Below are positions 22,135 to 37,860 of a DNA stretch of 59,730 nucleotides, piece after piece (the first letter of the stretch is position 1; every line of letters begins with the position of its first letter). Below the pieces are notes generated by a model. It was not told the origin of the DNA and made no database searches. It saw nothing but the letters and a program-made list of their open reading frames with translations. The stretch is from positions 1 to 59,730 of IMG/VR virus record IMGVR_UViG_3300024520_000076, one strand, 5' to 3'. The position numbers were made by a program, and so were the translations under genes. The stretch comes from a virus (taxonomy: Duplodnaviria > Caudoviricetes).

Positions 22135-24369
22135 TTATAATTCTTGGATCTCCATTGCGGTCTTTGCATCCCGTAACGATTGCTCCTGCTCAAACTTGGC
22201 TTGTTTGATTTGCATGTCAAGCTCAGCTTTTTGTTGTGCTATCTGCATTTTCATCTGGTGCTCCTGCATTTTAGCTTCCGCAGCAGGGTCAGGCCCTTCT
22301 TCAGTAGCCATATCTCCTTCAGCCGCACCCGCCTCCGTAGATTCACGCTGTAGTTTTTGAATATGCTTAGATGTGTTATTTATCATCTCTTCCGCATACT
22401 GTAACGCCTGTTTAGCTTGCCCGACTAACCCTTCCTGTAAAGGATCTCCCACAAGCTGCTCAGTAGTTGCCGCAATATGCTCATAAAATGCCTGTAGCGC
22501 AGGTAAAACAGCCGTAGGATCTGCTTGCCCAGCATCTAGCTGCTCAATAAGACCCATCAAGGCAGGAATGTGCTCCGCAAGATGCACTGCATGTAGCTCA
22601 GTCGTGACTACAGGAACTGGATTGCCCGCAGATAATTGTTGGTTTTCTAAGAACGCTATCTTTCCGTCTATCGTTGGCCTCGCTCCCTCGGCCACAGGGG
22701 CATACCTGTCAGCTAAATCATGACCCACACGAGTGGAAACTATGTCACGGGTAAGGTTCTTGCGCCCTACATCATCAAATGATCCCGCTATGCCTTGTAG
22801 CTCCCGTAACGCAACCAACCTGTTAGCATAAGATCCATTTCCAATAGACCTAACCGCTTTAGTCCTAGCTGTATCAAGACTCTTGATAAATGATTCCTGT
22901 ACCCCGCGCTCTGCACAACGACTATAAAATTCTTTCAACTCAGGATTGCCCTTCTTGCCCGACACAATCCTTCGGACTATTTCTTTAAGAAGCCTACCCC
23001 ATGATACATAGAACAGGTTTAAGGATGCACCAGATAAGCGGGTGCTAACATCTATGTCAGCTACCACCTGCATCTGATTCCTGTAAGGTGAACTCTGTTG
23101 AGGCCCGTATGTACTAACAGTATCAGTATTCTGAGCTAACTGGTTTGTAATATCCTCAAGAGCAGGTTGTACCCCAGTGCTCAAGTTAGGTGCAGCTTTT
23201 GTAATGATATTTACGTTGGGGGATAGGACAGCGTATGCTCCATAATAAGTGAACCCTAATTCATCTAGCGCCCTCTGGTTCTCTGGCTGAATCATAACCG
23301 CTGATCCTAACATCGCACCATCAATCATCTGGCAACGTAATCGGTTGCTCGTCTGAACGTGGTTAAAGATGCGATGCCCCAACCCGCGTATCGAATGGTA
23401 TGTGCCATTTGAACCCACACCATATGCGAACATCACGTACGCATGTTCTGGTTTTTCGTAACGGGAAATTTTTTCGTATAAGAATTTTTTAGGTTCCATC
23501 TCAGCGGAGATGTAATGAGATATACTTCCATCCAATTCCCTAACCCAAAAATGTAACACGGATATTGTAGGATTTTGATGCCCTCCATATATATCGTTGT
23601 TCTTCATCTCGGCTTGTAATGACTCCCAATCAGAATAATTATTTTTGGAGCTGCTCCTACCATCAGTAGTTACATTTTTAAGTAGCACTCTTTTTACCTC
23701 GTCCACATTCCATCCAACCTTTGCTGCCGCTTCAGGATTTTTGATAAAATTAAATAGCTCGTGCATGTGGTACTGCCTCCTACCAACAGCTACATCAATA
23801 GCCGCCTCAGAAGCAGGAGTCTGCCTCGGAATTAAAATATCAGCAAAACTCCCTACCCGAAATTTCCAGTCGTCTGGTGTATCAAAGTAGGTGATCCCTG
23901 TACCATGTTTTATGAACGTCGTACAAAGGCGCAAGTAGTGGGAATGGAATTCAGGCCAACTGCGTAGTAAATGAGTTATCTCTTCAGATACAATATCTTC
24001 CTGCTGGGTGATCTCACTGGGCTCTCCCTCCGTGCCCTTTACCTCCACTAGCTTTTCTAGTGAAGAGTAAAGGTCTACGTAGGCGGATAGCGAAATATCC
24101 AATAGCCGTTGAGCTTCACCAAAATTCAAATTAGTTTTAAGTCCCTGCCCACTTACGTTAAGCTGTGCTTGGTTGTATGGACTCGCCCCATCAAACATCG
24201 CATCCACCCTAGCTCGATTCACGGACGACTGCTCATCAGCTTTGCGAAGAGCTTGAAATAGACTCAGGGCGCTCTTTACATCTTTAATACGGCTTTTTAA
24301 AGGCTTACCTTTTTCGTCAAAAGTAGATAGTCCATCGAGTTCGTTCAGGGCATATGGGTCATGAGACAT
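22135..24369 (-). CDS. Portal protein
   Basis: 744 aa, helical, Q/E-rich C-terminal coiled-coil barrel, first gene of the head module. Confidence 0.8.
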   Translation of the reverse strand: MSHDPYALNELDGLSTFDEKGKPLKSRIKDVKSALSLFQALRKADEQSSVNRARVDAMFDGASPYNQAQLNVSGQGLKTNLNFGEAQRLLDISLSAYVDLYSSLEKLVEVKGTEGEPSEITQQEDIVSEEITHLLRSWPEFHSHYLRLCTTFIKHGTGITYFDTPDDWKFRVGSFADILIPRQTPASEAAIDVAVGRRQYHMHELFNFIKNPEAAAKVGWNVDEVKRVLLKNVTTDGRSSSKNNYSDWESLQAEMKNNDIYGGHQNPTISVLHFWVRELDGSISHYISAEMEPKKFLYEKISRYEKPEHAYVMFAYGVGSNGTYHSIRGLGHRIFNHVQTSNRLRCQMIDGAMLGSAVMIQPENQRALDELGFTYYGAYAVLSPNVNIITKAAPNLSTGVQPALEDITNQLAQNTDTVSTYGPQQSSPYRNQMQVVADIDVSTRLSGASLNLFYVSWGRLLKEIVRRIVSGKKGNPELKEFYSRCAERGVQESFIKSLDTARTKAVRSIGNGSYANRLVALRELQGIAGSFDDVGRKNLTRDIVSTRVGHDLADRYAPVAEGARPTIDGKIAFLENQQLSAGNPVPVVTTELHAVHLAEHIPALMGLIEQLDAGQADPTAVLPALQAFYEHIAATTEQLVGDPLQEGLVGQAKQALQYAEEMINNTSKHIQKLQRESTEAGAAEGDMATEEGPDPAAEAKMQEHQMKMQIAQQKAELDMQIKQAKFEQEQSLRDAKTAMEIQEL

Positions 24370-24926: not shown

Positions 24927-24953
24927 ATTAAATACATAAAGTTTTTATATATA

Positions 24954-24995
24954 CTCAATACAGTTTATAACCTTTACATTATAAATTGTATTGAG
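24954..24995. repeat. 17-bp AT-rich inverted repeat
   Basis: CTCAATACAGTTTATAA-N8-TTATAAATTGTATTGAG. Confidence 0.85.
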
Positions 24996-25142
24996 GTCTT
25001 AAAGAAAGTTTTCAATTTGTGTTTACACGTAAAACAGCTTGTTTTTATAATTACCATAAAAATGTATATACAATGGCATTACGCTCATTTTAATCTTGTT
25101 CAATTCTTTGTTAGCGCTCATTCCTGATTCTTGCGCTCTAAA

Positions 25143-25385
25143 TTATGAGCGGTTAGTCGTAAGCCCTTTTCGAGCCCTCCTCTTTGCCATAATACGCTCC
25201 TTATTTTTGGTGTAGTACTCTTCATTATAACTCCGCTGCTCTTTCGTCCACTTGGGGTTCTCAGCCCTCTTCCGATCCCTCATAGCTGCTATGCGGTCTT
25301 TATTCTTTTCGTAGTACTTACGCTGGTATTCGAGGCGTTTCTTCTTGTTATTCCTATAATATTCTTGCTTCTTTTCATCAGGCAT
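25143..25385 (-). CDS. Small basic protein with YYxxNK repeats
   Basis: EYYRNNK, KYYEKNK, EYYTKNK. Start MPDEKK at 25385. Confidence 0.65.
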   Translation of the reverse strand: MPDEKKQEYYRNNKKKRLEYQRKYYEKNKDRIAAMRDRKRAENPKWTKEQRSYNEEYYTKNKERIMAKRRARKGLTTNRS

Positions 25386-25390
25386 ACTGA

Positions 25391-25418
25391 ATCTTATAAG
25401 CGGGCCAAAAGAAGTCAA
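25391..25418 (-). promoter_or_regulatory. Putative promoter, near-leaderless
   Basis: TTGACT-N16-TAAGAT-N5-ATG(25385). Confidence 0.65.
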
Positions 25419-25606
25419 ATTTTTTCTTATAACCCCCTATATATACAGATCAACACGCACAAAAACTCGTACACACAGGGGTGGCGTACCCCACAGAAGA
25501 ACCAAATCCACACGACTCATGGCTCATTGTACCCTGCACCGTTTACACGCCTATGGAATCCTGATTCATGCTTCTTGCTTCACGTTACCAGCTCCCACAA
25601 AAAAGT

Positions 25607-25782
25607 CAGGCTTCGCATTGTTTTTCGAGCGCAAGCGGTTAATAAGTTTAATGTTTTATCATGCGGCGCTTCGCCTCGCTTTTTGCAAAAGCATCAGCGC
25701 ATCACCTTAGTTTACGTTTAAAGTGTAACCAATGTTAAATCAAAAGACAGACAGGCTTCGCATTGTTTTTCGAACGCAAGCG
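25607..25782 (+). repeat. 31-bp direct repeat, 145-bp period
   Basis: CAGGCTTCGCATTGTTTTTCGARCGCAAGCG at 25607-25637 and 25752-25782 (1 mismatch). Confidence 0.9.
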
Positions 25783-25854
25783 AGTATTAAGCTCAATGTG
25801 TTGCGAAAGCGATTACGTTTAATGAGCACTTATATCGCCCACGCTTTCGTCCAC

Positions 25855-27008
25855 TTAAAGAGCACTAGCTTGGATCAGCCCCATCTCTTTCCGTGCTCTT
25901 TAAATTAAAAGGATGGGGCTGATCATTGATCCCTGAATCTTGAATCCTGACTCATAGTCTAATAAGTATTCATGCAGGTCATTTGTCTTTTCATCATGCT
26001 CCCCAAGCATGAGGAAAAGCCAAATAGGGGTTATCATTTTTCAAGTCAGTGAAAAGACAAAGCGGGCTCTTAATCTCTTGAGGAGGGCATATATCCCGAT
26101 AGTTTTATTCTAGTGCCACGTCTAATAGATTATATATCCTCCTCAAGACCCGCTTTGTTTTTTCTAATTATAAGTTCATGTAGCTACGTCTTGGCTAAAG
26201 CCCCCCTGCTTCGCCGTTGTAAAAACAGGACAAGAATCACTATTCCACTCCCCCCTAATCAGGGGAAGTAAAACAGCTCCCTGTGTCCAGTTTTTTTAAA
26301 CAGCATACACCGTTCATTCGCACGAAGATTTTGTGCTCTAATCGACCTGCAAATTGTCGATAAGAGCAAAATCTTCAGCACTCAATCCCCGAAAATCACG
26401 TGTTTTTTATGTGTCGTGGAGACACAAAAAACATGTGCCCAAGCCCTTCGGGCCGAATTCCCTCTTCTCCTAGTCATCATAGATGACGAAGATTTTATGA
26501 CTGGTTCCAAAACCAAACGAGTTTGGTTTTGCTGAATTCACAAAATTTCATGGCTCCTCTCGAGCCGAAATTTTATGTTCTTTCAGATCAAAATCTTCCG
26601 TCGGGCGAGAAAATCCCTTGGTTTTTGGGGCTGTTGTCTATTCCTTTAAACGCTAGGGTAGTTCGTTACAACAAGGCAGGAATAGCCATTAGCAGCACTA
26701 AGGCTCCGCCCTTAGCACTGGAACTGAACGCCCCTTAACAAATTTTCTCTCACTCAACCATTTTTACAAGGGCTAACCGCCCCAGTAAAAATACGGCCTC
26801 GTTTCTTCGGGATTAATGAACTCGCTAAAGGGGGAGATTCCCCCGACTGCGGCGTGTCCTCCGTCGTTCTTGCGTTTGTTCCTGAGCCCCTTCTTTTCCA
26901 TTTTTCTGTCCTCCACGGAGTTATGGACAAAAAAAGTGAAAAAGAAGACAAACGCAATCGCTCCCTCGGCCAGTCCTCATCGGCTAAATCTCAGCAGGAT
27001 TCTCGCTT
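25855..27008 (+). ncRNA. Candidate large structured non-coding RNA (or folded ssDNA element) of unknown family
   Basis: More than 12 adjacent or nested stems, a pseudoknot and no credible ORF. A G-U pair at 26400/26434 weakly favours the + strand. Confidence 0.55.
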
Positions 27009-27096
27009 GAAAGAAAATTTAAATACTTTAGTTGAAGCAAGTTTAGATTCAACTTCTACAAATAATAACAACAATACTAAACATAAAATAAAATAT

Positions 27097-27567
27097 ATGG
27101 CTACACAAAATAGCAACAACCTATCTGGTAAGAACTTCAAAACTGAACTAGATCTTACCTTATTAACCGCAATAGCACACACTATTGTTAACCACGAAAC
27201 AGCCTGTCTTGAAAATATGGTAAGAATATCTAAAGGACACATATGGCTAACTGTTTTTAACTTCTTCAAAAGAGATAAAAGCGGAGTCGCAACTGTTGAT
27301 GAATATGAGAACACTCATTCAACTAGTTTCAATACAACCCAAGAACAAAGAGAAAACTTTGGTGACATCGTTATCAAAGACAAAAAAGGCAACCCTATGT
27401 GCAACAACAAAGGTGAACCTTGGACTATTGCCTCTGTATTCTGTGGTAATACTCAGGAACTTGGACTCGTAAGAACAGCAGAAGAAGACGTACCTGACTC
27501 TGATGATCTTATTAACAAACTCGAAGCCATAGCTAAAGCTAAAGAAGAACTTGCTTCAAAAGCATAA
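27097..27567 (+). CDS. Early hypothetical protein, first gene of A-rich operon
   Basis: ATG 27097 (MATQNS) after an A-rich leader. The upstream in-frame extension lies in the hairpin region. Confidence 0.75.
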   Translation: MATQNSNNLSGKNFKTELDLTLLTAIAHTIVNHETACLENMVRISKGHIWLTVFNFFKRDKSGVATVDEYENTHSTSFNTTQEQRENFGDIVIKDKKGNPMCNNKGEPWTIASVFCGNTQELGLVRTAEEDVPDSDDLINKLEAIAKAKEELASKA

Positions 27568-27579
27568 ACTAACACCAAC

Positions 27580-27613
27580 AAGGGGCTCACTGTTTAATTG
27601 CAGTGAGTCCCTT
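27580..27613 (+). other. Intergenic stem-loop, copy 1
   Basis: AAGGGGCTCACTG-N8-CAGTGAGTCCCTT, no U-tract. Confidence 0.75.
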
Positions 27614-27640
27614 AACTTAAACATTCAAAATATAACTACC

Positions 27641-27982
27641 ATGTACATTGACCAAACATCCAGCCTACTCATCGCACTTATCATAACAATAGGTGCTTCA
27701 CTATTAATAATAGAGCTCTTATGCGCAAAGAAAGCGCTAGCTCGTAGAGAAAAGGATTACAGTTCACTTCGAAAAGTCCACGAAAGGAATGATAAAACAA
27801 TCAGAAATCAAAGGAAAAAAGCACTAAGAAAATGGATTACTGAAGTAGAATTCATAGCTCCCACAAATAAATACATTCAATTTCTTGAATCAGGATCAAA
27901 AAATTCCTTAACCAAATGGCAAAAAGATGTATTCACAGAAGCACTCAACGAGGTTGAACAATGGGGTCATGATTGCAATTAA
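27641..27982 (+). CDS. Early single-TM protein
   Basis: MYIDQTSSLLIALIITIGASLLIIELLC, then a basic region. Confidence 0.65.
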   Translation: MYIDQTSSLLIALIITIGASLLIIELLCAKKALARREKDYSSLRKVHERNDKTIRNQRKKALRKWITEVEFIAPTNKYIQFLESGSKNSLTKWQKDVFTEALNEVEQWGHDCN

Positions 27983-27993
27983 CGAAAAATAAT

Positions 27994-28494
27994 ATGAGCC
28001 ATATTATTAAACCACTACTAACTGAATCATCTTGGCATAAAGCAACCATCAAATCAAAAAACAAAACTATGAAAAAAGAACTACCGCACTTCGAATTCAG
28101 ACACGAACAATACGGTCATGTTAACACGCCATTTACAATCTGGGCTGACCCCCACAATTTCATTGGCGCAACATGGGCAACCATAAAAGATACTGAGAAA
28201 CAAATCGCTTACAATGTACAGGAAGAAAGCTTTGTATATAATATAGCAGATCTCTACTTATCTTTACGCAGTATTACAAGATCAATACTACTTAAATATA
28301 AAGCACAAGGAGGAGCCCCATCACTACGATTAAGTACTAGTCACCTACTCAGAAAGCTACTAGCAAAACCAATCAAAGAAAGAATGGGCGATATATCAAG
28401 AGACATATATACACTCCGTAAATTCCACCATGTATATGAAGTACTTCAAATCTTAACAGAAGACGAACCTATTAAAGTTTCAACAAAGAAATAA
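27994..28494 (+). CDS. Early hypothetical protein
   Basis: ORF in operon. Alternative start at 28069 has the AAAACTATG context. Confidence 0.6.
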   Translation: MSHIIKPLLTESSWHKATIKSKNKTMKKELPHFEFRHEQYGHVNTPFTIWADPHNFIGATWATIKDTEKQIAYNVQEESFVYNIADLYLSLRSITRSILLKYKAQGGAPSLRLSTSHLLRKLLAKPIKERMGDISRDIYTLRKFHHVYEVLQILTEDEPIKVSTKK

Positions 28495-28499
28495 AAACT

Positions 28500-28844
28500 A
28501 TGACAAATCCAACTATTAAAAGACACTGGACTACAGAGCACTACCCAAACGCAGTACCCATTGATCTATGGGAACTGATACGGGCATTAACATATCAGAT
28601 GAATCTTATGAATGGAGTGCCGCCTGAAAAAAGGCTCACTCCAGAATCATTCCAAGAAAAAGTAGCTTACTACACACAAGCTGGAACTAAGCTGGATGCT
28701 TATCGATCATACTCAGATAAACAAGGCAGATATTGCATGACAGTAGGCATCCGTTGCAGCAATGAAGACTCTGACTACTACAGTCCCCATCTCACATCGG
28801 AAGTCGCATCAAAATTTGACCTCGATCCACTCAACAAAGACTAA
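28500..28844 (+). CDS. Early hypothetical protein
   Basis: 114 aa, ATAAAAACTATG start context. Confidence 0.7.
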   Translation: MTNPTIKRHWTTEHYPNAVPIDLWELIRALTYQMNLMNGVPPEKRLTPESFQEKVAYYTQAGTKLDAYRSYSDKQGRYCMTVGIRCSNEDSDYYSPHLTSEVASKFDLDPLNKD

Positions 28845-28874
28845 GAATGGAACATTCAAATAAACCCTTAACTG

Positions 28875-28908
28875 GAGGGACTCACTGTAATAACACAGTG
28901 AGTTCCTC
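28875..28908 (+). other. Intergenic stem-loop, copy 2
   Basis: GAGGGACTCACTGT-N6-ACAGTGAGTTCCTC. Confidence 0.75.
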
Positions 28909-29098
28909 ACATTCTCACTTAACCACGCCAAGAAAAAGAAATAGTGTATTTTCCTATCAGAAAATACAATTACAAATAAAAAACATAGAAGAATCAACAC
29001 CTCATTTGTATATGAATACTACATATGAGACTTTCCAAAACAAAACAAACAAAAAAAACAACCCCCCATACCAAAACTAAATAAAAACTAAAAAAACT

Positions 29099-30001
29099 AT
29101 GAAAAAAATAATACATATACTATTCGCTCCATTCAGAGCAATCAAAAACAGACTCCTTGGTTCAATCATCAAGCGAGCAAACATCACAAATAAAACTATA
29201 AGTAACACATTAGTAAATGATCTACCTAATTTTCAATACGACCTAGTACAAGAGGTAGCAGAGAAAATAGATATGGATGATATTATAGGTGGCCTTGATT
29301 ACTCAGCACTTGGCTATGAAGTAGACGAATGTGAACTAGCATCACACCTACACACCAGTGACATCGCCTATGAAATAACTAATAACCATCTATCAACATC
29401 AGAAGTTGCAGATGAAATAGATCTAGATCGACTTGCCTCTATTGTTAAAAAAGAAGTAGGAACAGATCTCGAAGCACTCGATTCAAGACTTGATGAAATA
29501 GATGCTAAGCAAGTTGATGACTCAAAATACAATGACCTTGTTAAAACAATCAAAAACCTCGAAGCATTCACACTTGCCATGCAAGACGAACATAAAGAAA
29601 ATTATGTCCGTCATACTAATAGATTCCATCATCAAGACGACGATCTAAATAGAATTGAAACGGAAATGGAAGAGAATCTTATCCGCTTAAACAAAGACAT
29701 GCATCAAGCACACCTTGAGCGCGGCAAACTGTATGAGAAAACAAATAAGTTTGTAAGCCGTCAATGGGTACTGGATGCCATTGAAGCAAGAGCAATCGAA
29801 ACAGATGAACGGATAGATACAACAATAGCTAACACAGATGCACTATATCAACCAGAGCTAAAAGGATACAGAGTTACATTCATGGATGACTTCGAAGCCA
29901 TCAATGAAGAAGAAGCATATGAAAAACTAATTCATTATTGTGAAGAGGTATGTAGGAACCAAGACGTAACAGCATTTAACTTCGAAGAAATAAATGAGTA
30001 A
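29099..30001 (+). CDS. Early acidic repeat/coiled-coil protein
   Basis: 300 aa with ~9-aa acidic repeats (IDMDDIIGG, LDYSALGYE, VDECELASH, LHTSDIAYE, LSTSEVADE, IDLDRLASI). Confidence 0.75.
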   Translation: MKKIIHILFAPFRAIKNRLLGSIIKRANITNKTISNTLVNDLPNFQYDLVQEVAEKIDMDDIIGGLDYSALGYEVDECELASHLHTSDIAYEITNNHLSTSEVADEIDLDRLASIVKKEVGTDLEALDSRLDEIDAKQVDDSKYNDLVKTIKNLEAFTLAMQDEHKENYVRHTNRFHHQDDDLNRIETEMEENLIRLNKDMHQAHLERGKLYEKTNKFVSRQWVLDAIEARAIETDERIDTTIANTDALYQPELKGYRVTFMDDFEAINEEEAYEKLIHYCEEVCRNQDVTAFNFEEINE

Positions 30002-30122
30002 TCAAACAAACAAAATTAAATGGAAAGTAAAGAACAACAGGAAAGAACAAGAGCAAGATTAGCCCGTAGAGGAATAATCTACTACACTAATTAACATATA
30101 AACCAAACAAGAAAGAAACCAA

Positions 30123-30608
30123 ATGAGTAAACTAAAACATCTAAACCTATGGACACATCCTCAGAATTATATGGGGACAACATGGGAAGACTACTATGTA
30201 TTCCTATCACAGACTAGAGACAGTGACGCACTGGAACGATCCAACTTTATCAAAGGATTGGAAGCAATAGGAGGTGAAGACCCTGAAATGGTAGTCACAG
30301 CAGGAGCAAACCATTGGGCTTATGGATGGTTGGATACTATCTACATCCATAAAGATGCCCATGCTACCCTACAAAAAGCAGATGAAATAATGGAGGAATT
30401 AAATAACTATCCTGTAGTAGACGAAGAACATTACTGCGAACTGGAGCACGAAGAAGCAACAGGAGTATGGAAAGACTGCTATGATCCGAAAGAAAGGATA
30501 GAGTTCTACCGAAAGCACGAGCCTCAGTGGTATTCATATAAAGATCTACTCCAAAGTGTGCGAATAGGTGACACATTCTGGGGTTGTGCAAGTGACCTAC
30601 TCACCTAA
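30123..30608 (+). CDS. Conserved early phage protein
   Basis: RDSDALERSNF...HWAYGW...YPVVDEEHY. Confidence 0.75.
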   Translation: MSKLKHLNLWTHPQNYMGTTWEDYYVFLSQTRDSDALERSNFIKGLEAIGGEDPEMVVTAGANHWAYGWLDTIYIHKDAHATLQKADEIMEELNNYPVVDEEHYCELEHEEATGVWKDCYDPKERIEFYRKHEPQWYSYKDLLQSVRIGDTFWGCASDLLT

Positions 30609-30629
30609 TAAACTAAACAAATAAAAACT

Positions 30630-30893
30630 ATGATAGATATCAATACATTATTCCAAGAGTTATCACCAGAACAAGAGCAATCATTCCGCAAATGGGCACG
30701 AGAAAACTACAAAGCTCTCGAACACATTAAAGATATATGGCATCCATCAGTACGTGATGAATGTAATAAGATAAACAATGAGTTACTAGCTAACTACGAA
30801 CAGAGACTTGCTGACAGTGGAGATGATCTAACTGAACCAACACGCCAGCAACTAGAGGATAAAATAGAATATATAAAAGACCAATTAGTATAA
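30630..30893 (+). CDS. Early hypothetical protein
   Basis: LSPEQEQSFRKWARENY...WHPSVRDEC, with A-rich leader. Confidence 0.7.
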   Translation: MIDINTLFQELSPEQEQSFRKWARENYKALEHIKDIWHPSVRDECNKINNELLANYEQRLADSGDDLTEPTRQQLEDKIEYIKDQLV

Positions 30894-30911
30894 TCCAAAC
30901 AAATAAAGACT

Positions 30912-31193
30912 ATGATAACAGAACTAAATAAATATAAAACAAGCGTTGCTATACAGATGAGCCCTAAAGATGATCAAAATAACAGATCATGGATGGCATC
31001 AGCATACGATAATAAATACAGCCACATGGGAGACGTAGCTACTATCTCATTAAGTACAATCCCAGAGCATCCATCGCCAAGGGAACGAGAAGAGATATTC
31101 AACTACCTATATGAATCCTGTTGTGAAGAGCATCCAACAGCAGACCATATAATCATTGAACAAGTACAGGAAACACAAGAGAAAGGAGAATAA
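30912..31193 (+). CDS. Early hypothetical protein
   Basis: 93 aa, AAAGACTATG context. Confidence 0.65.
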   Translation: MITELNKYKTSVAIQMSPKDDQNNRSWMASAYDNKYSHMGDVATISLSTIPEHPSPREREEIFNYLYESCCEEHPTADHIIIEQVQETQEKGE

Positions 31194-31194
31194 A

Positions 31195-31566
31195 ATGGGA
31201 CTCGACCAATACGCATACAAAGTAAAACGTGAATACAACAGGCATTCGAAAACTGAAACAATAACCAAAGTAGAAATTGCATACTGGAGAAAACACAATG
31301 CACTCGAAGGATACATGTGTGATCTCTTCCATAGCAAAGGAGGAGACGGAGAGTTTAATTGTAGAACACTACCATTAAACAACGACGACCTCGAAAATCT
31401 AGATAAAGCAATAAACAATAAAGGGCTACCAGAAACAGATGGATGCTTCTTCGGAGAAGACACAAGTAAAGATGAAGAATGTAAAGCACTGGATAAGTTA
31501 TTCATCGACGATGCAAAGAAAGCATTAGGAGATGGATGGGAAATTGAATACACCTCATGGTGGTAA
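31195..31566 (+). CDS. Conserved early phage protein (MGLD...YWRK...SWW type)
   Basis: MGLDQYAY...EIAYWRKHNALEGYM...GCFFG...YTSWW. Confidence 0.8.
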   Translation: MGLDQYAYKVKREYNRHSKTETITKVEIAYWRKHNALEGYMCDLFHSKGGDGEFNCRTLPLNNDDLENLDKAINNKGLPETDGCFFGEDTSKDEECKALDKLFIDDAKKALGDGWEIEYTSWW

Positions 31567-31570
31567 CATA

Positions 31571-31798
31571 ATGAAAATAAAACAAAGACAAAACAAATTA
31601 AAAGACTTCTACCGAGATGCAATCCTAAATGAAAGTAACAAAAAAGAACGGATAATAGCACTCGACTTCCTCATTAATGACTACATTGAAAGCAACCTAG
31701 CGTTAGAAGAATTCGGAGGAGATGATGACTCAGCATTAGAAGAACTAGAAATCCTAGCTGAAGATTTTCTAGGATACAAAAGAAATAAATCAGAATGA
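31571..31798 (+). CDS. Early hypothetical protein
   Basis: Acidic helical ORF, start at 31571. Confidence 0.6.
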   Translation: MKIKQRQNKLKDFYRDAILNESNKKERIIALDFLINDYIESNLALEEFGGDDDSALEELEILAEDFLGYKRNKSE

Positions 31799-32229
31799 AA
31801 ACAGAACAACAAACTATGACCGACCCAAAAATGATAAGCCTCTATTCAAATAAAGTATTATTAAGTAGACTTAAACTAGAAATAAAAGGTATGACTCCAT
31901 CAGGAACAACAGCCTACGCTAGAATTAAAAAACAATTCGGGCTCAAAGGAAACAAAGAAAAAGTACATCAAAAATTAAAAGAGATACTTGATCAAACAGA
32001 AGATGACCTACTGAATAAAAAAGAAGTACTAGCAAGAGATCTCAAAGTAGGAGATCTAGCTATCTTCAACGGCATCATACCAGAAAAAATATTAGAGATA
32101 CATCCTTACGGAACATCCTTCCACTCACTAATATTCGTAACAGACCAAACAGATTCTCGTAACGGCCAACCTTGGCAAGCAGTCAAGCTGGATAAAATAA
32201 CAACCATTACGAAAAACCAAACTAAATAA
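31795..32229 (+). CDS. Early hypothetical protein
   Basis: LKLEIKGM...AYARIKKQFGLKGNK, then an SH3-like ARDLKVGD segment. Confidence 0.7.
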   Translation: MKTEQQTMTDPKMISLYSNKVLLSRLKLEIKGMTPSGTTAYARIKKQFGLKGNKEKVHQKLKEILDQTEDDLLNKKEVLARDLKVGDLAIFNGIIPEKILEIHPYGTSFHSLIFVTDQTDSRNGQPWQAVKLDKITTITKNQTK

Positions 32230-32250
32230 ACTAAACTAAAAATAAATACT

Positions 32251-33402
32251 ATGTCACACGAAATTGAACACACAGATACAGTCATCTCGACTAAGAAAGA
32301 ATGGCACGGACTAGAAATAATCAAAGAGGAACTCCATCCTACGATTGTAGATAGTGACCACCGCAATGTATACTTTGATATACATGAAGGCACTGCGTAT
32401 GCAGATGTTGATACAGATAAACGACAAGAGCTAGTTGATCTATCATCTACACAAGATGGTCTATCACACAGCGGAGTCATGGAACTACTAGGCACATGGT
32501 CTGAATGTCCTCATAATAAAATACTCACAAGAGAGTATGAGGGATTCAGATATGGCTTAGGTATTCCAACATCTAAATACAAATCCATTGAGAACATGAA
32601 GCTTGTCCAAGCAGTATGTAACTCACTGGATGATGAAGGTATCAAGTACACAATACAAACATTGGGTACACTGAAACAAGGTAAACTATTCTTCGCATCA
32701 ATAGAAATAGCTGATGATGCAGAGAGAGTTATCAATGGAGATAACTTCCAGTTCTATCTTAACCTACTACAATCACATGATGGTTCATATGCAATGACCA
32801 TGTTTGATTCAAACATGAGAGTCGTATGCTCCAACACATTCAAAGCATCATTAAATCAACAAGGTGATCTAGCTATCAAGATAAAGAAAACATCTAATGC
32901 AGAACTTCGATTAGAAGAAGCAGGTAGGACAGTTGCTAATATCTATAAAGGTAGAGATCAATTTGTATATATGATGAAACGCTTCGCTGAAGTTGCATGT
33001 GATACAAAGAAAGCAGAACAACTTATCTCTGCATACAAAGGTATTGATATGGATACTAATACTATATTATCAACAAGGGCATTCAACCAAGTTGTAGATA
33101 TATCACACCTCCACGAAAATGGTATAGGTAACAAAGGAGAAACATTATATGATCTCTTCAATGCAGTTACTGAGTACTACACCAGTGGAAATGGAACAGG
33201 CCATGACAATGGCACAGCCGACCGATCATGGAAGAAATACACATCAAGTGAATTCGGTGGAGGCGCAGATGCCAAAGCAGGATTCGCTACATGGTTAGTT
33301 AAAGTAATAGACGACACCTCACTCCATGCAGAAGCAGAGAAAGGTAGACAACTACTCGAAACTAAAAAAGTAACTACACTAAATAAGCTTATTAAAGCCT
33401 AA
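32251..33402 (+). CDS. DUF932/DUF945-like protein
   Basis: WHGL, YLNLLQSHDGS, RVVCSNT, TLYDLFNAVTEYYT. Confidence 0.85.
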   Translation: MSHEIEHTDTVISTKKEWHGLEIIKEELHPTIVDSDHRNVYFDIHEGTAYADVDTDKRQELVDLSSTQDGLSHSGVMELLGTWSECPHNKILTREYEGFRYGLGIPTSKYKSIENMKLVQAVCNSLDDEGIKYTIQTLGTLKQGKLFFASIEIADDAERVINGDNFQFYLNLLQSHDGSYAMTMFDSNMRVVCSNTFKASLNQQGDLAIKIKKTSNAELRLEEAGRTVANIYKGRDQFVYMMKRFAEVACDTKKAEQLISAYKGIDMDTNTILSTRAFNQVVDISHLHENGIGNKGETLYDLFNAVTEYYTSGNGTGHDNGTADRSWKKYTSSEFGGGADAKAGFATWLVKVIDDTSLHAEAEKGRQLLETKKVTTLNKLIKA

Positions 33403-33482
33403 TGATAGCAGTTATAACATGGGCAATAGTATGGATACTCATAGCCTTAGTAGTATATATTATAACTGAAGAAACAAAATAA
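33402..33482 (+). CDS. 26-aa membrane peptide (not in ORF track)
   Basis: MIAVITWAIVWILIALVVYIITEETK, coupled by TAATG. Confidence 0.5.
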   Translation: MIAVITWAIVWILIALVVYIITEETK

Positions 33483-33521
33483 AAACAAGGGGGTGAAAGT
33501 CCCCCACATCTTAAATATAAC

Positions 33522-33836
33522 ATGTTAGTAGATATATCAGCAAATGAAGGGTACAAACTCATCAAAGATTGTGACGTAGCAAAAGGGTGGAAACAATACG
33601 CTATTGAATTCCTTTTCAATCATCTATACGACCAAACATCAAATGATTGTATAGATTTAATAGGAGCATTAGTTACTTGGAGTCACTACACATCAACAAT
33701 GGAAATCATGCAGAACTATAAAAAATGGGAAGATGTAATAGATAGATCTGTATCATTTAAAACATGGGCTGATCATGATGATCCAGAAATTGATAAAGAC
33801 GGATACAAAATAGAATACCTTGTACCAGATTATTAA
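33522..33836 (+). CDS. Early hypothetical protein, last gene of A-rich operon
   Basis: 104 aa, acidic, followed by a terminator. Confidence 0.65.
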   Translation: MLVDISANEGYKLIKDCDVAKGWKQYAIEFLFNHLYDQTSNDCIDLIGALVTWSHYTSTMEIMQNYKKWEDVIDRSVSFKTWADHDDPEIDKDGYKIEYLVPDY

Positions 33837-33855
33837 AACTAAAGCGTACAAAAGG

Positions 33856-33889
33856 ATACCTACTAGAATAAAAACTAGTAGGTATTTTT
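33856..33889 (+). terminator. Intrinsic terminator ending the A-rich operon
   Basis: ATACCTACTAG-N7-CTAGTAGGTAT followed by TTTTT. Confidence 0.75.
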
Positions 33890-33950
33890 ATGCTAACCTA
33901 AAGAGAAGTCAGGCTCGCAAGCTCGCTTTGGTTTTGGAGGGCGGGCAACA

Positions 33951-34047
33951 GCCATCTGAGATTTAAATCCAAGCATCTGTCTAATTTTTGGACCCCCCGC
34001 CTTTCAGGCATCTGAGATTTGGGCGGCGCTTTCAGGCATCTGAGACT
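33951..34047 (+). repeat. Iteron-like CATCTG(AGA) repeats
   Basis: CTTTCAGGCATCTGAGA at 34001-34017 and 34029-34045. Partial copies at 33951 and 33973. Confidence 0.8.
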
Positions 34048-34186
34048 TGCGCCCTGATCCCTGACTCCTGACTCCTCTCCCATAGGAGTTGCCGAAGTGC
34101 GCCTAAAAAAACACACTCTATAAAAATAGGGTTTTGGTACTCTAACGAGGCATGAATCGCGAAAAAACTTGCATTCCTGAACCATA

Positions 34187-34272
34187 GCACATGTCTTGTG
34201 AATAGGGGGTGCACTGGATTACAAACTATCTGAGTTTTAGTATGCACACTTCTTGTGAATAGGGGGTGCACT
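34187..34272 (+). repeat. 22-bp perfect direct repeat, 57-bp period
   Basis: TCTTGTGAATAGGGGGTGCACT at 34194-34215 and 34251-34272, each preceded by GCACA. Confidence 0.9.
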
Positions 34273-34312
34273 AAAACACTCCTAATTAATTCAAAAGAAT
34301 TAAAGAAAAGTC

Positions 34313-34341
34313 TTGACCATTAATCGTGCATGATGTACCCT
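34313..34341 (+). promoter_or_regulatory. Sigma70-like promoter of second early operon
   Basis: TTGACC-N17-TACCCT with an A-rich upstream tract. Confidence 0.6.
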
Positions 34342-34440
34342 TGATTGTTGTTATACGGCAACACAATGAAGCGCCCCTCTCAGAAGGCTTTGTGTATGTC
34401 CTTCTGGGAGGGGTAATTTAAAACTAAACAAAAACAAACT

Positions 34441-34623
34441 ATGAAAACAGAATACGCGCCAGATATAAAACAAGCTGTCAAAGATGCCAGCCTTAATGTT
34501 GCCTGTCTGCTGGATCAGAACTATGACAGCCCAGATGAATTAGAAAGTGAATTGTACAGGCTACAGGAATACATAACTCTTTTAGAGAATCACATATTAA
34601 ACAAAGACGAACCAGTAATATAA
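34441..34623 (+). CDS. Small hypothetical protein
   Basis: AAACAAACTATG context. Confidence 0.65.
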   Translation: MKTEYAPDIKQAVKDASLNVACLLDQNYDSPDELESELYRLQEYITLLENHILNKDEPVI

Positions 34624-34631
34624 AACAAACT

Positions 34632-34841
34632 ATGAAAACAGAACCCACAGTATATAAGTTTACTTTCTACGGATGTGCCCACCCTTGGGTAGCTACAGAG
34701 AGTCTCCCTGAACAAGTAGACGAGGCGCTTTGTTACATCGATGGCCTCCAGCAAATGACCAAGCTGGAAGTTACAGAACTCTCCCTTAAAGAGAAGCCAA
34801 AGCCAAGACGCAAGGCGGTAAAGAAAGGGGAAACAAAATGA
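34632..34841 (+). CDS. Small hypothetical protein
   Basis: Same AAAACAAACTATGAAAACAGAA start as the previous gene. Confidence 0.65.
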   Translation: MKTEPTVYKFTFYGCAHPWVATESLPEQVDEALCYIDGLQQMTKLEVTELSLKEKPKPRRKAVKKGETK

Positions 34842-35044
34842 CATCACAAGACCTACTAGATTTGTACGACATCAAAAGGTTTCTTCAAATGAGGAAACTT
34901 CTTGATGAGCCAAAAGACAATGAAGGCACTGAGGAGACTATAGGTTTCCTGATCAGTGCCTTCATTGATCGGGCAGAGGAGGAGACTCAAGGTTTCATAA
35001 TCACTTCCTTAATTGATCAAACAACGAAGGAAACACAAACATAA
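34838..35044 (+). CDS. Small hypothetical protein
   Basis: ATGA-coupled. Confidence 0.6.
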   Translation: MTSQDLLDLYDIKRFLQMRKLLDEPKDNEGTEETIGFLISAFIDRAEEETQGFIITSLIDQTTKETQT

Positions 35045-35064
35045 ACCAACAAAGAAAAAACAAA

Positions 35065-35406
35065 ATGAAAATAAAAGAAGTAATTCAATTTTTTAACGAG
35101 ACTGTAAATTTCCCTAGTCGCCGTGGGGATGCTGATGATTATATTATCTGGGAGCATTGGGCTATAGAGGATTTGTTTTCCGAAGATGAGCGCAAACAAA
35201 TAACAGACAAGGAATGGGAATATGCGTGTGGTTATAGTATGACAGAGTTTGATTGGGAACAAACAAAGGATGCTATAGCGTCTCTTATACGCCGTGATCT
35301 AGTCGACTTCAGAAAATTTAACGGGGAACAGGAAGAAGATCTGGGTGATACTTGGATTAAGATTGAGAAGGACAAATCTATTCATGGAAGAAAACACCCA
35401 AGATAA
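35065..35406 (+). CDS. Acidic hypothetical protein
   Basis: 113 aa, A-rich leader. Confidence 0.65.
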   Translation: MKIKEVIQFFNETVNFPSRRGDADDYIIWEHWAIEDLFSEDERKQITDKEWEYACGYSMTEFDWEQTKDAIASLIRRDLVDFRKFNGEQEEDLGDTWIKIEKDKSIHGRKHPR

Positions 35407-35819
35407 TGGCTACAGAATTAAACAAAGCAATCCACCGCGCTGTCGAGATAGATGGCGCAGACTATATTGTTTCGCTCCAGCCTGACCCGCCACGGGTCAC
35501 GCTGAGAAAGAAACGGCATAAGAATACAGCAAGTGAAATCACCCTTGCAGAATTACTGGAACCAGACACCATAGTAGCAGACACACGAGAGGAGGAAGTA
35601 GCGCTTATGTCTGATAAAGATTGGGAATCATTAGGTAATTACAAACCATCTGACGCAGACTACATACATCCAAGTGACTTAAAGCTATGGGCAAAGTACA
35701 GCTACCCTAAGTTTAAGGTAGCATGGGAGCAGTACAAGTCAGCTACTAGAGGGAACAAACAAGCCGATATAATCTGGAACACAGACGGCTCAATAGAAAT
35801 CGCTAACCACCCAGAGTAA
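35406..35819 (+). CDS. Hypothetical protein
   Basis: 137 aa, TAATG-coupled. Confidence 0.65.
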   Translation: MATELNKAIHRAVEIDGADYIVSLQPDPPRVTLRKKRHKNTASEITLAELLEPDTIVADTREEEVALMSDKDWESLGNYKPSDADYIHPSDLKLWAKYSYPKFKVAWEQYKSATRGNKQADIIWNTDGSIEIANHPE

Positions 35820-35820
35820 T

Positions 35821-35952
35821 ATGAATAAGTCACAATGGAAAAAGAAAGCAAGAGGGAAAGTAATCCGTAAAAATAAACATAAAAAGAAACTGGATAAGCT
35901 AAAGTTTAAAAAAAGAATAGCGAAAGGAAATGACTACCCCGAAACAAAATAG
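35821..35952 (+). CDS. 43-aa extremely basic peptide (not in ORF track)
   Basis: MNKSQWKKKARGKVIRKNKHKKKLDKLKFKKRIAKGNDYPETK. Confidence 0.5.
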   Translation: MNKSQWKKKARGKVIRKNKHKKKLDKLKFKKRIAKGNDYPETK

Positions 35953-36157
35953 GCGAGCAAGAAAGAAAGGGCTTAAAAAAGCGAGCCGTAAAAAGCGGAG
36001 AGTTAGTATTAAGAATTCGAGTACTGAGGATCTCACGCGCAACAAAGCAGGGAATAAATATATATTCGATGGGAAGCAAAAGTTTATGCGCGGGGTAATG
36101 GCTTCCTCGGATGGAAGTAACCAAAGAGCAAAAAATAAAAAACAATGCAACAGATGA
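35930..36157 (+). CDS. Small basic protein
   Basis: RRARKKGLKKASRKKRR. Confidence 0.55.
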   Translation: MTTPKQNRRARKKGLKKASRKKRRVSIKNSSTEDLTRNKAGNKYIFDGKQKFMRGVMASSDGSNQRAKNKKQCNR

Positions 36158-36351
36158 TATACGCAATATTAATAATAGGAGTCTACCTAAGTATAGTTTA
36201 CTTTTGTTTCTATCTTCTACGGAAGCTGAAGGAACAGGCAGAGTATATACAAAGGCATAACGAACGAACCCTCACATACAAACGGAGGATACAAGCAATG
36301 ACAGAAACATTAGAAAGGGAGCGAGATGCCCAGCAATCACATATCAAATAA
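36145..36351 (+). CDS. Small single-TM protein
   Basis: MIYAILIIGVYLSIVYFCFYLL plus coiled coil. Confidence 0.6.
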   Translation: MQQMIYAILIIGVYLSIVYFCFYLLRKLKEQAEYIQRHNERTLTYKRRIQAMTETLERERDAQQSHIK

Positions 36352-36577
36352 GCCATACCATGATTGGTTAAGGGAGCAAGGCAAGAAGCCGAAGGTCTTA
36401 TTCACCCATGACTTCAACATACCATTCAGCGTGGACTCATTCGAGAGTGACCCTTGGGAGGTGGACGCTGAGACAGTGGCGTTGACTTTACTTAAACGGG
36501 TACAGAACTGTAGGGATTCTGACACTATCATGGATGCCATTGAGCACACCCAAACTATATCGGAGCAAATTAAATGA
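36326..36577 (+). CDS. Hypothetical protein
   Basis: 83 aa, overlaps both neighbours. Confidence 0.6.
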   Translation: MPSNHISNKPYHDWLREQGKKPKVLFTHDFNIPFSVDSFESDPWEVDAETVALTLLKRVQNCRDSDTIMDAIEHTQTISEQIK

Positions 36578-36687
36578 TAATAACAATAGGATTAATTGTA
36601 TGGCTACTAGCTATCGTATGTGTTTTGCGGTTCTTTACTGTATCCGCTAACAATCAACATAGGAAAAGAGGAGGAAAGAAACCGTGA
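36574..36687 (+). CDS. 37-aa membrane peptide (not in ORF track)
   Basis: MIITIGLIVWLLAIVCVLRFFTVSANNQHRKRGGKKP, with 4-nt overlaps on both sides. Confidence 0.5.
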   Translation: MIITIGLIVWLLAIVCVLRFFTVSANNQHRKRGGKKP

Positions 36688-36983
36688 TACGTTATCGTTC
36701 AGCGGATTGGTACTCTTGTGACCCAGCGCCTCTTGATCCTAGGGTGCGCCCTCATGAAATGGTCGAGCGCATAACGACCAAGGAAACGCCAAGCAAATTA
36801 ATTATGATAGACGAAGAAACCGATGAGGAATTTCTTTCTCGGTTTGGGTTAGGGTGCGGCGACCTGCCCTCAGATTATCCCGAACGAATAAAGCGAGCTA
36901 CCCACCACCCACGTACAATGAGTATTGTAATGGACAGGCAGTATGTTGCTTGCCATTCAGATGCCATCCACCCTGCATCCTGA
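36684..36983 (+). CDS. Hypothetical protein
   Basis: 99 aa, GTGA-coupled. Confidence 0.5.
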   Translation: MIRYRSADWYSCDPAPLDPRVRPHEMVERITTKETPSKLIMIDEETDEEFLSRFGLGCGDLPSDYPERIKRATHHPRTMSIVMDRQYVACHSDAIHPAS

Positions 36984-36984
36984 A

Positions 36985-37096
36985 CCCTGACCCCTTGATT
37001 CTGAGCTAGGAATAAAGCTAGAGGAGAACTCTGGATGAGGCGTTTTTCATAGTAACGTCTTTGATGAACACCTAGTTTAGAATCAAGGGGTTAGGG
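36985..37096 (+). ncRNA. Candidate structured RNA: 26-bp stem closing a three-way junction
   Basis: 36985-37010 pairs with 37071-37096 with three G-U pairs and no mismatch. Two internal hairpins. Confidence 0.55.
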
Positions 37097-37105
37097 AATC
37101 CCCTA

Positions 37106-37133
37106 TTGTTTATTACTTATTTGATGTTATTTT
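37106..37133 (+). promoter_or_regulatory. Putative promoter, near-leaderless
   Basis: TTGTTT-N16-(TGT)TATTTT-N7-ATG(37141). Confidence 0.5.
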
Positions 37134-37140
37134 AATAAGT

Positions 37141-37341
37141 ATGAACATCTTGCGCATCTATTATGAACAGTATGAACTACTGTTAAACATGCAGATTGTG
37201 GATGGTCATATACTGCCAGAGACATTCAAAGTTTTCCCTGTATTTAGGGACGTTGATGGTAGCAATCCTAAACTGGGGGAGGCAATAGTCCTCTCATTAA
37301 CTGAAGCAAAAATAATCTTACCTATTAAATACCTAACATGA
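37141..37341 (+). CDS. Small hypothetical protein
   Basis: 66 aa after promoter, coupled to the next gene. Confidence 0.6.
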   Translation: MNILRIYYEQYELLLNMQIVDGHILPETFKVFPVFRDVDGSNPKLGEAIVLSLTEAKIILPIKYLT

Positions 37342-37628
37342 ATCTATCTACCAAATGCCATCCCGAATCTGTTTTGAAAGCTGTCTCCGAAATCTCTGGT
37401 TATAGTCCAGATGAGATAGTTAGTAGTAAACGTGGCAACTCCATCACAGCTTGGAGGCACATAGGAATGTTTGTTGCGAGACAACGTGGGATGACATTGG
37501 ATCAAGTAGGAAAACTATTTGGTAAGCACTATACATCTGTGAGTTTTGCAGAGCGTAAGGTGGAGAAGAAGATGAATGACACAGTTCGTAGGGCTATAGA
37601 TGCTGTAAACAATATAGTAGATAAATGA
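37338..37628 (+). CDS. Stand-alone DnaA C-terminal (domain IV)-like HTH protein
   Basis: VSEISGYSPDEIVSSKR...AWRHIGMFVAR...TLDQVGKLFGKHYTSV. Confidence 0.85.
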   Translation: MNLSTKCHPESVLKAVSEISGYSPDEIVSSKRGNSITAWRHIGMFVARQRGMTLDQVGKLFGKHYTSVSFAERKVEKKMNDTVRRAIDAVNNIVDK

Positions 37629-37629
37629 T

Positions 37630-37860
37630 ATGAGTCTTAAACGATATCTTAAAATTGATGGCGGGGGTGACTACTCATGGCTTGCTCTTAAATCTATCTA
37701 CGGGAGATATGAAATAACAGGGGATCGTAAAGGATCTCGTGTCCTTCTATTCCGTGGACTGAGCGAAGACAATGCCATAGCGCACTTTAAGAACTTGGCA
37801 AACAAGCACGGGGCTTATTCGTTAAGCCGCCCTCTTACAAACTATCTGGTACGTACTTAG
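37630..37860 (+). CDS. Small hypothetical protein
   Basis: 76 aa, converges on the giant gene. Confidence 0.55.
   Translation: MSLKRYLKIDGGGDYSWLALKSIYGRYEITGDRKGSRVLLFRGLSEDNAIAHFKNLANKHGAYSLSRPLTNYLVRT

Follow-up and report, generated by a model that had tools for sequence, protein, structure and literature searches.

We analyzed a single contig of 59,730 bp, IMG/VR record IMGVR_UViG_3300024520_000076 (hereafter, the window, meaning this whole stretch of DNA), which is the near-complete genome, of ~60 kb, of an uncultured marine tailed phage, and concentrated on a block of small A-rich genes, denoted U1, together with the highly structured coding-free stretch in front of it. The explanation we favor, with moderate confidence, is that U1 is a hyperplastic accessory module, probably expressed early and framed by two conserved control nodes, in which stem-loops serve both as transcript punctuation and as recombination junctions. 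Under this explanation, the interval would be the first of three rightward units (U1, 26.9-33.8 kb; U2, 34.4-37.0 kb; U3, 37.1-37.9 kb) that together make up a hyperplastic and probably early-expressed accessory arm. The left node (25.39-25.6 kb) contains a leftward sigma-70-like promoter, a GTGGCGT box and CCTGAHTC heptamers, and the right node (33.85-34.42 kb) comprises, besides a terminator and a sigma-70-like promoter, short repeats, heptamers and a leader hairpin. Everything between the nodes is fluid: the coding-free stretch differs in length and sequence, the gene set changes and, in three relatives, so does the orientation. A duplicated 31-nt motif is located precisely where similarity to the nearest relatives breaks off, and the motifs, the stem-loops and the A-rich gene leaders would be junction and punctuation elements. 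At the RNA level, these elements would act in the termination, attenuation or protection of transcripts and keep the divergent units insulated from each other; at the DNA level, gene-sized cassettes would be gained, lost and swapped at the short stretches of identity that they provide.

U1 consists of 13 small open reading frames (ORFs) and stands out by composition. Over 27-34 kb, the GC fraction is 0.35-0.37 and the AT skew is +0.23 to +0.39, compared with GC fractions of 0.40-0.48 in the other 1-kb bins, which establishes as real the A-rich operon described in an earlier note on this DNA. Support for the first ORF being a coding one comes from a 2274-nt metagenome contig (L064; 99% identical to the window over 25509-27662), in which a 120-nt insertion (L064 1509-1620, compared with window 27010-27017) stays in frame. 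Searches with 10 of the operon ORFs gave no match to a Pfam or PHROG family of known function. As far as titles and abstract openings go, none of the listed papers using the term DUF932, the family to which one U1 gene belongs, addresses its function; several actinophages carry DUF932 genes at a genome end or close to one. A-rich gene leaders are repeated in the window, and there are related intergenic hairpins at 27580 and 28875.

The variability of this block is apparent from comparison with relatives, a set of 61 IMG/VR loci found with the 744-aa protein encoded at 22135-24369. Many of these are on contigs of 57-64 kb, and 7 of the 10 records checked are rated at least 98% complete. In tblastn searches (E 1e-4) of 54 related loci, 9 of the 13 U1 proteins had no homologue, and the remaining U1 genes gave patchy, gene-sized matches scattered among distant relatives; the two flanking leftward genes were matched in 41 and 46 of the 54 loci. 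In three relatives (L003, L004 and L012), the two control nodes enclose genes that are homologous to those of U1, including DUF932 in L003, but are read from the other strand; the module can be inverted. A close strain in one sequencing run (X4) diverges from the window at 25455, leaves two bins between 25671 and 27004 without cover, and shows cassette-sized skips inside U1. These comparisons indicate that the A-rich block is a hyperplastic accessory region. The architecture as a whole, for which the earlier note proposed a check in related genomes, is not kept: the motif, the folded sequence and the gene set all differ, and what persists is the two flanking control nodes.

In the left node, the TTGAC(T) box of the leftward promoter is invariant in the aligned relatives, and the adjoining control box is invariant across 5 relatives and also occurs near some relatives' contig ends. 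The pattern TTGAC-N16-19-TAnnnT is depleted in the window (4 occurrences vs 10.06 expected), and two of the four matches are the node promoters, at 25418-25391 on the - strand and at 34313-34341 on the + strand. The site in L001 homologous to the latter reads TTGACT-17-TATAAT, and another relative, G001, carries a repeated TTGACA-17-TATCAT before its genes; both agree with the sigma-70 consensus. Promoters of the Bacteroidota type are not in excess in the window (1 match vs 1.49 expected).

The right node begins with a hairpin followed by a T tract, and both this hairpin and the repeat region behind it, as reported in the earlier note, are present. The hairpin (-18.5 kcal/mol on the + strand) is kept in L001 and L002 with a stem lengthened on both arms by one base pair, so that a stable stem-loop, a T tract and conservation in relatives, the usual marks of an intrinsic terminator, coincide at the end of U1. 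Besides this hairpin, the parts conserved with L001 and L002 are GCTCGC-N-GCTCGC, TTGGTTTTGGAGGG, the CAGGCATCTGAGAYTT repeats and the CCTGAYYC heptamers, which in the window occupy 34053-34076. The leader hairpin that follows the U2 promoter contains G-U pairs on the + strand only, and compared with L001, two of its stem positions are changed on both arms (by eye).

Within this node, the earlier note placed a third, diverged copy of the 31-nt motif, which, along with the two copies on the left, was taken to bracket the block. What the site shares with the motif is its two ends, AAGTCAGGCT and CGCAAGC, and the rest of the 41 nt assigned to the copy, TCGCTTTGGTTTTGGAGGGCGGGC, matches nothing in the two left-hand copies. 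The 10-mer AAGTCAGGCT alone, with at most one mismatch, is not unusual (4 found vs 4.74 expected). For patterns designed after the site had been seen, the paired ends exceed what shuffled sequences give, with 3 matches to CAGGCT-N0-20-CGCAAGC vs 0.02 expected and 2 matches to AAGTCAGGCT-N0-20-CGCAAGC vs 0.00 expected. The third copy is, then, significant against shuffled sequence, contrary to the first of the outcomes that the earlier note named as refuting its proposal, but only the motif ends are there, and they are not conserved in the nearest relatives. The L001/L002 segment aligned to the site reads GCTCGC-TATC-GCTCGC-ATTGGTTTTGGAGGGG and lacks AAGTCAGG; therefore, to judge by this alignment, the site is a different conserved element that, in this genome, resembles the two ends of the motif.

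The pair of copies on the left is real. CAGGCTTCGCATTGTTTTTCGARCGCAAGCG occurs exactly at 25607-25637 and 25752-25782, on the + strand in both cases (2 matches vs 0.00 expected in 100 shuffles), and the copies differ at 1 of 31 positions, represented by one R in the pattern. Similarity extends to 62 nt with 82% identity at a spacing of 145 nt (repeat family D4), and TTACGTTTAA is also common to both units, although at shifted offsets (by eye). We read the pair as a diverged tandem duplication of ~145 nt with a nearly identical hairpin core. Each core is predicted to fold into an interrupted stem of ~10 bp closed by a U5 loop, the energies of the two being -9.3 and -5.4 kcal/mol for the + strand and -7.3 and -7.5 kcal/mol for the - strand; neither is followed by a T run, and no good -35/-10 pair was found in the two units. 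The motif is specific to this lineage: it is missing from all 61 related loci, even with up to 6 substitutions allowed, has no exact match in viral_contigs, and outside the window was found only on L064. At the nucleotide level, the resemblance to L001 and L002 breaks off at 25592, which is 4 nt short of the first unit. The motif as a bracket is not supported, given that it is found in 0 of 61 relatives and its right-hand copy is not kept in the nearest ones. The single ~8.4-kb unit proposed in the earlier note survives as a discrete rightward module with a structured stretch before it, a terminator after it and control regions on both sides, but not as a block bracketed by the motif.

The folded element is real as well. 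The 1000 nt from 25590 reach -300.3 kcal/mol on the + strand (z -13.3 relative to shuffles) and -343.9 kcal/mol on the - strand (z -11.0). The coding-free stretch is not a branched fold but a row of independent, mostly near-perfect stem-loops. An interleaved pair of inverted repeats at 25857-25925, one being ttaaagagcac...gtgctctttaa and the other gatcagccccatc...gatggggctgatc, could give either alternative hairpins or a pseudoknot-like arrangement. In folding tests on 700 nt (600 nt in the case of L001), z was -6.0 for the window and -10.1, -4.9, -4.0, -3.8, -2.9 and -1.6 (the last from L053) for the leaders of six relatives, compared with -1.4 to +1.8 for seven coding controls. Because the relatives' leaders fold below the coding controls although their sequences are unrelated, hairpin richness is a trait that recurs in relatives without sequence conservation. 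The leaders of the five relatives that were aligned with each other are not hairpin-rich (L053, z -1.6). Inside the rightward units, 5 of 5 hairpins fold better on the + strand, a preference that fits a function at the RNA level there. Two further measures were discarded, namely, a local 60-nt folding profile because GC content dominates it, and strand counts of stable tetraloops (58 on the + strand vs 20 on the - strand in accessory arms) because A-rich composition confounds them.

The evidence for a junction role comes from the relatives, because the genes of the window are not separated by its motif. An exact 14-mer in three or more dispersed copies was found in the accessory arms of 25 of 44 loci, compared with 5 of 44 size-matched structural controls; in 10 of the 25 loci, these repeats lie inside a stem-loop (as scored by script), and seven loci have 8-13 copies. 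In L014, L054 and L056, the repeat is a perfect 19-nt palindrome, TTAACAACTGAGTTGTTAA, with 14-17 copies per locus, and L053 has 16; the copies are mostly intergenic. The resulting hairpins, with an 8-bp stem and a 3-nt loop, are perfectly conserved, precede nearly every accessory gene and occur in both orientations (loops TGA and TCA). Related lineages have versions of their own, TTTAACAAGCTCTTGTTAAA in L041 and GCAGGGTATAACCAACTATACCCTGC in L020 and L021. Among L014, L053, L054 and L056, 57 of the 119 ends of homology blocks fall within 30 nt of a palindrome, compared with 13.7% of random positions, and one cassette present in L054 and absent from L014 is bounded by two palindromes. At three junctions in L054, according to the ORF map, the palindrome also provides the stop codon of the upstream gene. 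As a separate observation, G001 (L036 and L062) contains two copies of a ~230-nt element with a long inverted repeat, one between the HNH-like and the small basic-protein genes and the other at the start of the accessory genes.

Among known systems, the closest counterpart appears to be the promoter early stem-loop (PeSL) cassettes of T4-type phages, which are described as stem-loop repeats with a strong sigma-70-like promoter that accompany orphan genes in hyperplastic regions (Arbiol et al. 2010, PMC2839356). The two have in common repeated intergenic stem-loop elements tied to orphan genes in the most variable region, gain, loss and exchange of gene-sized segments whose breakpoints fall at the repeats (here, in L014, L053, L054 and L056), and stem-loops that are plausibly terminators or attenuators insulating cassettes. 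They differ in that PeSLs contain a promoter and none was seen in the window motif or in the relatives' palindromes, in that the repeats described here are lineage-specific, with only two copies in the window, both upstream of the gene block, and in that the phage group is unrelated to the T4-type phages. A broader likeness is to the host-takeover regions of other phages. The early regions of T7-like phages and the host-takeover module of SPO1 are blocks of small early genes that the host polymerase transcribes from promoters close to one end, with intergenic hairpins (in T7, RNase III sites) and a closing terminator. U1 resembles them in being a small-gene block with intergenic hairpins and a terminator, and differs from them in that no tandem strong promoters, no RNase III-type double-stem sites and no protein homology were identified.

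Several observations weigh against the accessory-module explanation. Full copies of the motif number only two in the window, and neither lies within the block of genes. For U1, the promoter search gave no good-quality site, the best candidate scoring 9/12; because of this, early expression, although plausible, and transcription by the host polymerase are suggestions rather than demonstrated properties of U1 itself. Unlike in PeSLs, no -35/-10 pair is recognizable in the repeats when inspected by eye, including the contexts of the 19-nt palindrome. The strand on which the hairpins of the coding-free stretch act is ambiguous: raw folding energies are better on the - strand by 1 kcal/mol or more for 7 of 15 hairpins and on the + strand for 3, and most of this difference is compositional, since shuffled controls differ by the same margin. 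Furthermore, in the leader of the relatives, half-sites of the palindrome are repeated directly as well, which points to a DNA-binding protein rather than to RNA. Finally, a long run of unique, near-perfect palindromes exceeds what transcript punctuation needs and would also fit a site acting at the DNA level, such as an origin, a packaging site or a pause in entry.

Such a DNA-level site is the main rival to the accessory-module explanation, albeit one that we consider unlikely. The coding-free region would be a replication origin or a packaging recognition site, the 62-nt repeats and CCTGnnn arrays would bind an initiator, the small terminase or some other phage DNA-binding protein, and the candidate binders would be the 80-aa basic protein and a protein consisting of a DnaA C-terminal domain (domain IV). 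The heptamers lend this possibility substance. CCTGAHTC is found 14 times compared with 5.76 expected, a number reached in 0 of 100 shuffles, and 6 of the 14 are within the non-coding nodes, all six on the + strand; those of the left region lie at 25932-25953. Short tandem arrays of CCTGnnn occupy non-coding positions of the + strand at 25930-25953, 34053-34076 and 36972-36989 in the window, and recur family-wide on the + strand of the non-coding accessory arm, in some cases as inverted pairs and in L033 as ~17 units. In T7, arrays of 7-bp repeats adjoin the terminal repeats. The palindrome half-sites that form direct repeats in relatives point in the same direction, as do the Bac_DnaA_C protein encoded nearby and the genes flanking the coding-free region, one HNH-like and the other encoding the conserved 80-aa basic protein. 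However, heptamer arrays also precede U2 and U3, which suits operators in promoter regions better than a single origin or packaging site. An essential cis site is usually conserved, whereas these repeats and hairpins are not, and GC skew tracks gene direction, giving no origin signal.

There is a slim chance that 25.6-26.8 kb instead encodes a structured non-coding RNA or a cluster of small RNAs, for example, a leader that governs read-through to an adjacent operon by attenuation or antitermination, or an anti-defence RNA. The very strong folding excess on both strands would be expected from this possibility, and on the - strand there are a terminator-like hairpin at 26435-26456 and a hairpin of 17 pairs with a T-rich tail at 26236-26280 that forms on that strand only. 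L064 differs from the window at 13 positions, 8 of them in predicted pairs, and two C-to-T changes, at 25792 and 25852, both opposite G, would keep the pairing as G-U, although at 99% identity, L064 is too close for covariation analysis. The shape of the region speaks against such an RNA, being a row of separate near-perfect hairpins as opposed to a multi-branched fold. No good promoter was found inside the region on either strand, and beyond 25592 the hairpin field has no homologue in sequence or structure in the 61 related loci. Rfam 15 gave no match at the gathering score across the window, and at E up to 1 there were only four chance matches of the miRNA type (E 0.14-0.73), far below that score.

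We also consider, as rather improbable, a cassette-exchange platform for first-acting genes, in which the lineage-specific palindromes and hairpins and the CCTGnnn arrays would be read by a co-evolving DNA-binding or recombination protein and would mark the sites of insertion, excision or inversion; the 1.4-kb hairpin field would then be the entry site of the platform or a pause site during DNA entry that keeps the accessory genes inside the cell ahead of the rest.

Staged entry of the T5 type, put forward in the earlier note, is highly improbable and, as it stands, unsupported. It would make the block the first-entering DNA, possibly within a long terminal repeat, with the hairpins and repeat array as the injection stop and the A-rich genes as pre-early functions that let the remaining genome enter. 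The layout does resemble that of T5, and the giant polyvalent protein packed by the phage suggests a contested entry phase. In addition, the contigs of relatives end in this region more often than elsewhere, 10 of the 54 mapped contigs stopping 1.16-2.84 kb beyond the anchor gene. As genome termini, these ends were rejected: they are scattered over 1.7 kb and, where inspected, lie in tandem arrays. Thus, G001 ends in a long TGTCACGC run on one side and in 25-mers on the other, and the 99-nt 'direct terminal repeat' of G006 is an overlap inside an AAAACC array. The doubled read coverage that the earlier note proposed to look for was sought in contig-mean word depths. The sequence was found in 24 runs, all of them assembled Logan contigs from sea-water and marine metagenomes, with no RNA run among them. 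For the two that are the likely sources, a duplicated 8-kb block is expected to raise depth to 1.35-1.6 times that of its neighbours. The contig spanning 26057 to ~39794 in run X2 has a depth of 11.2, compared with 12.1 and 12.7 for its neighbours, and the one spanning 21625 to ~45417 in run X1 has 17.8, compared with 19.2. Because contig-mean depth is the same as or below that of the neighbours, the data argue against an 8-kb terminal repeat over 26-34 kb, and a terminal position of the block gained no support.

The T5 stop region is described as a site within a terminal repeat of ~10 kb, with repeats whose order is conserved among relatives and eight paired DnaA boxes (Davison 2020 preprint, 10.1101/866236). 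By comparison with that description, the present region shows no duplication by depth, its sequence and the order of its hairpins beyond 25592 are not conserved, and it has no DnaA boxes: the two TTWTNCACA sites of the window, at 14593 and 15187 (5.6 expected), are outside both non-coding regions. The absence of any family of known function from the operon ORFs searched extends to the A1, A2 and dmp families. The other analogy drawn in the earlier note, to the leading regions of conjugative plasmids, is not supported either. Plasmid DNA enters single-stranded and uses single-strand promoters there, whereas tailed phages deliver duplex DNA. First-acting accessory genes behind structured DNA and the presence of a DUF932 gene are points of resemblance, although no literature linking DUF932 with 'leading region' was found. 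Pfam and PHROG searches of the operon ORFs found no SSB, PsiB or Ard family. A -35/-10 pair formed by paired arms was looked for by eye in the hairpins at 26051-26164 and 26760-26792 only; none was seen in the long stem, and in the 26760-26792 hairpin, TTTACA and TAAAAAT flank the stem, the ordinary duplex arrangement.

An N4-like logic, in which the repeated hairpins would be promoters in single-strand form for a virion-carried polymerase, is largely refuted: the conserved hairpins before nearly every accessory gene of the relatives presumably resemble N4 promoters and a 3564-aa virion-type protein is encoded, but sequence searches of PHROG, Pfam and PDB found no phage RNA polymerase in this protein, which also lacks the D.D.D / D.DGD pattern and is similar over its C-terminal 1414 aa to ART-PolyVal/LPD38 polyvalent protein clusters (score 0.96). 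In addition, the relatives' hairpins face either way, and sigma-70-like promoters are present.

The remaining features of the genome are those of a tailed phage without close cultured kin. No cultured relative of the region was found by megablast and blastn among 50,697 phage records, and the large terminase gave one match, at 24.8% identity. Leftward virion genes run from 25385 down to 2840, followed on the right by the coding-free stretch (25420-26850) and the small rightward genes (26923-37860); leftward genes then run from 53448 down to 37857, the last encoding the 3564-aa protein. The accessory arm thus sits between two leftward blocks of virion and packaging genes. Genes for a helicase, an exonuclease and a family-A DNA polymerase are also encoded. 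The polymerase ORF crosses both contig ends in frame (1-398 and 59133-59730), which raises the possibility of a closed circle; this was rejected because the joined frame has 330 aa, compared with 589-615 aa in five relatives, so that ~270 codons are missing and the contig, a near-complete linear fragment, lacks ~0.8 kb. An inverted repeat with 33-nt arms (24938-25011) lies downstream of the 80-aa basic protein gene, and a large leader hairpin precedes U3 (36983-37098; -62.1 kcal/mol with 6 G-U pairs on the + strand, -43.9 kcal/mol on the - strand). The coordinates of the features discussed are collected in the table.

Table. Sequence features of the U1 interval and of other parts of the window
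Feature	Position	Strand	Evidence or remark
Primase	422-2587		
Tail protein, 1979 aa	6236-12175	-	
80-aa very basic protein, repeated YYxxNK motifs	25143-25385	-	kept in 46/54 related loci; no family match
Sigma-70-like leftward promoter, TTGACT-16-TAAGAT, A tract before	25391..25418	-	upstream of the 80-aa basic protein gene (25385-25143)
Family-conserved control box: GTCAAATTTTTTC, 15-19 nt, TATATA, A run, G/C-rich GTGGCGT box	25405..25500		relatives' alignment
Repeat unit, copy 1; 31-nt hairpin core 25607-25637	25596..25657	+	repeat search, shuffles, folding
Repeat unit, copy 2; 31-nt hairpin core 25752-25782	25741..25802	+	repeat search, shuffles, folding
Coding-free stretch, at least 13 separate stem-loops	25857..26870		repeats, folding, inverted repeats
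114-nt hairpin	26051-26164		
17-pair hairpin, 6 G-U, then T-rich tail	26236-26280	- only	
Second terminator-like hairpin	26435-26456	-	
Candidate U1 promoter, TTTACA-17/18-TAAAAAT, 9/12, stem-loop in spacer	26763..26792	+	weak; inverted repeat I11 at 26760-26792
U1, 13 small A-rich ORFs, low GC	26923..33836	+	composition, ORFs, searches
U1 intergenic hairpins	27580-27613; 28875-28908; 33487-33507		
DUF932 gene	32251-33402	+	sole U1 ORF with a Pfam family
Terminator-like hairpin, then TTTTAT, end of U1	33849..33893	+	folding, inverted repeats, relatives
Third 'copy', AAGTCAGGCT + CGCAAGC (motif ends without the central 14 nt)	33906..33922	+	pattern searches; not kept in L001/L002
Second control node: GCTCGC-AA-GCTCGC, TTTGGTTTTGGAGGG, CAGSCATCTGAGAYTT x3 (33949, 34005, 34033)	33913..34076	+	repeat family D18; kept in L001/L002
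29-nt repeat GCACAnnTCTTGTGAATAGGGGGTGCACT, two copies	34187..34272	+	repeat family D5
Sigma-70-like promoter of U2, TTGACC-17-TACCCT; leader hairpin 34372-34415	34313..34415	+	promoter pattern, L001 homology
96-aa protein, solely a DnaA C-terminal DNA-binding domain (Bac_DnaA_C, E 2.1e-12)	37338-37628	+	last-but-one gene of the rightward arm
3564-aa ORF, probable virion-delivered multi-domain protein	37857-48551	-	predicted membrane-like segments, HExxH, DprA-like and other PHROG domains (residues 1741-2132)
Large terminase	51679-53448	-	

The finding does not by itself open a long-standing question. If the accessory-module explanation holds, however, abundant uncultured marine phages would keep their fast-evolving genes as exchangeable cassettes with lineage-specific stem-loops between them, and a mechanism described in T4-type phages would extend to an unrelated group. 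The accessory genes are likely to be a set for host takeover and counter-defence. The hairpin field, with z about -13 over 1 kb and no known RNA family, is unusual and merits experiment. The same explanation would also yield a rule for locating novel early genes in viromes, namely, to look for a variable block between two conserved control nodes.

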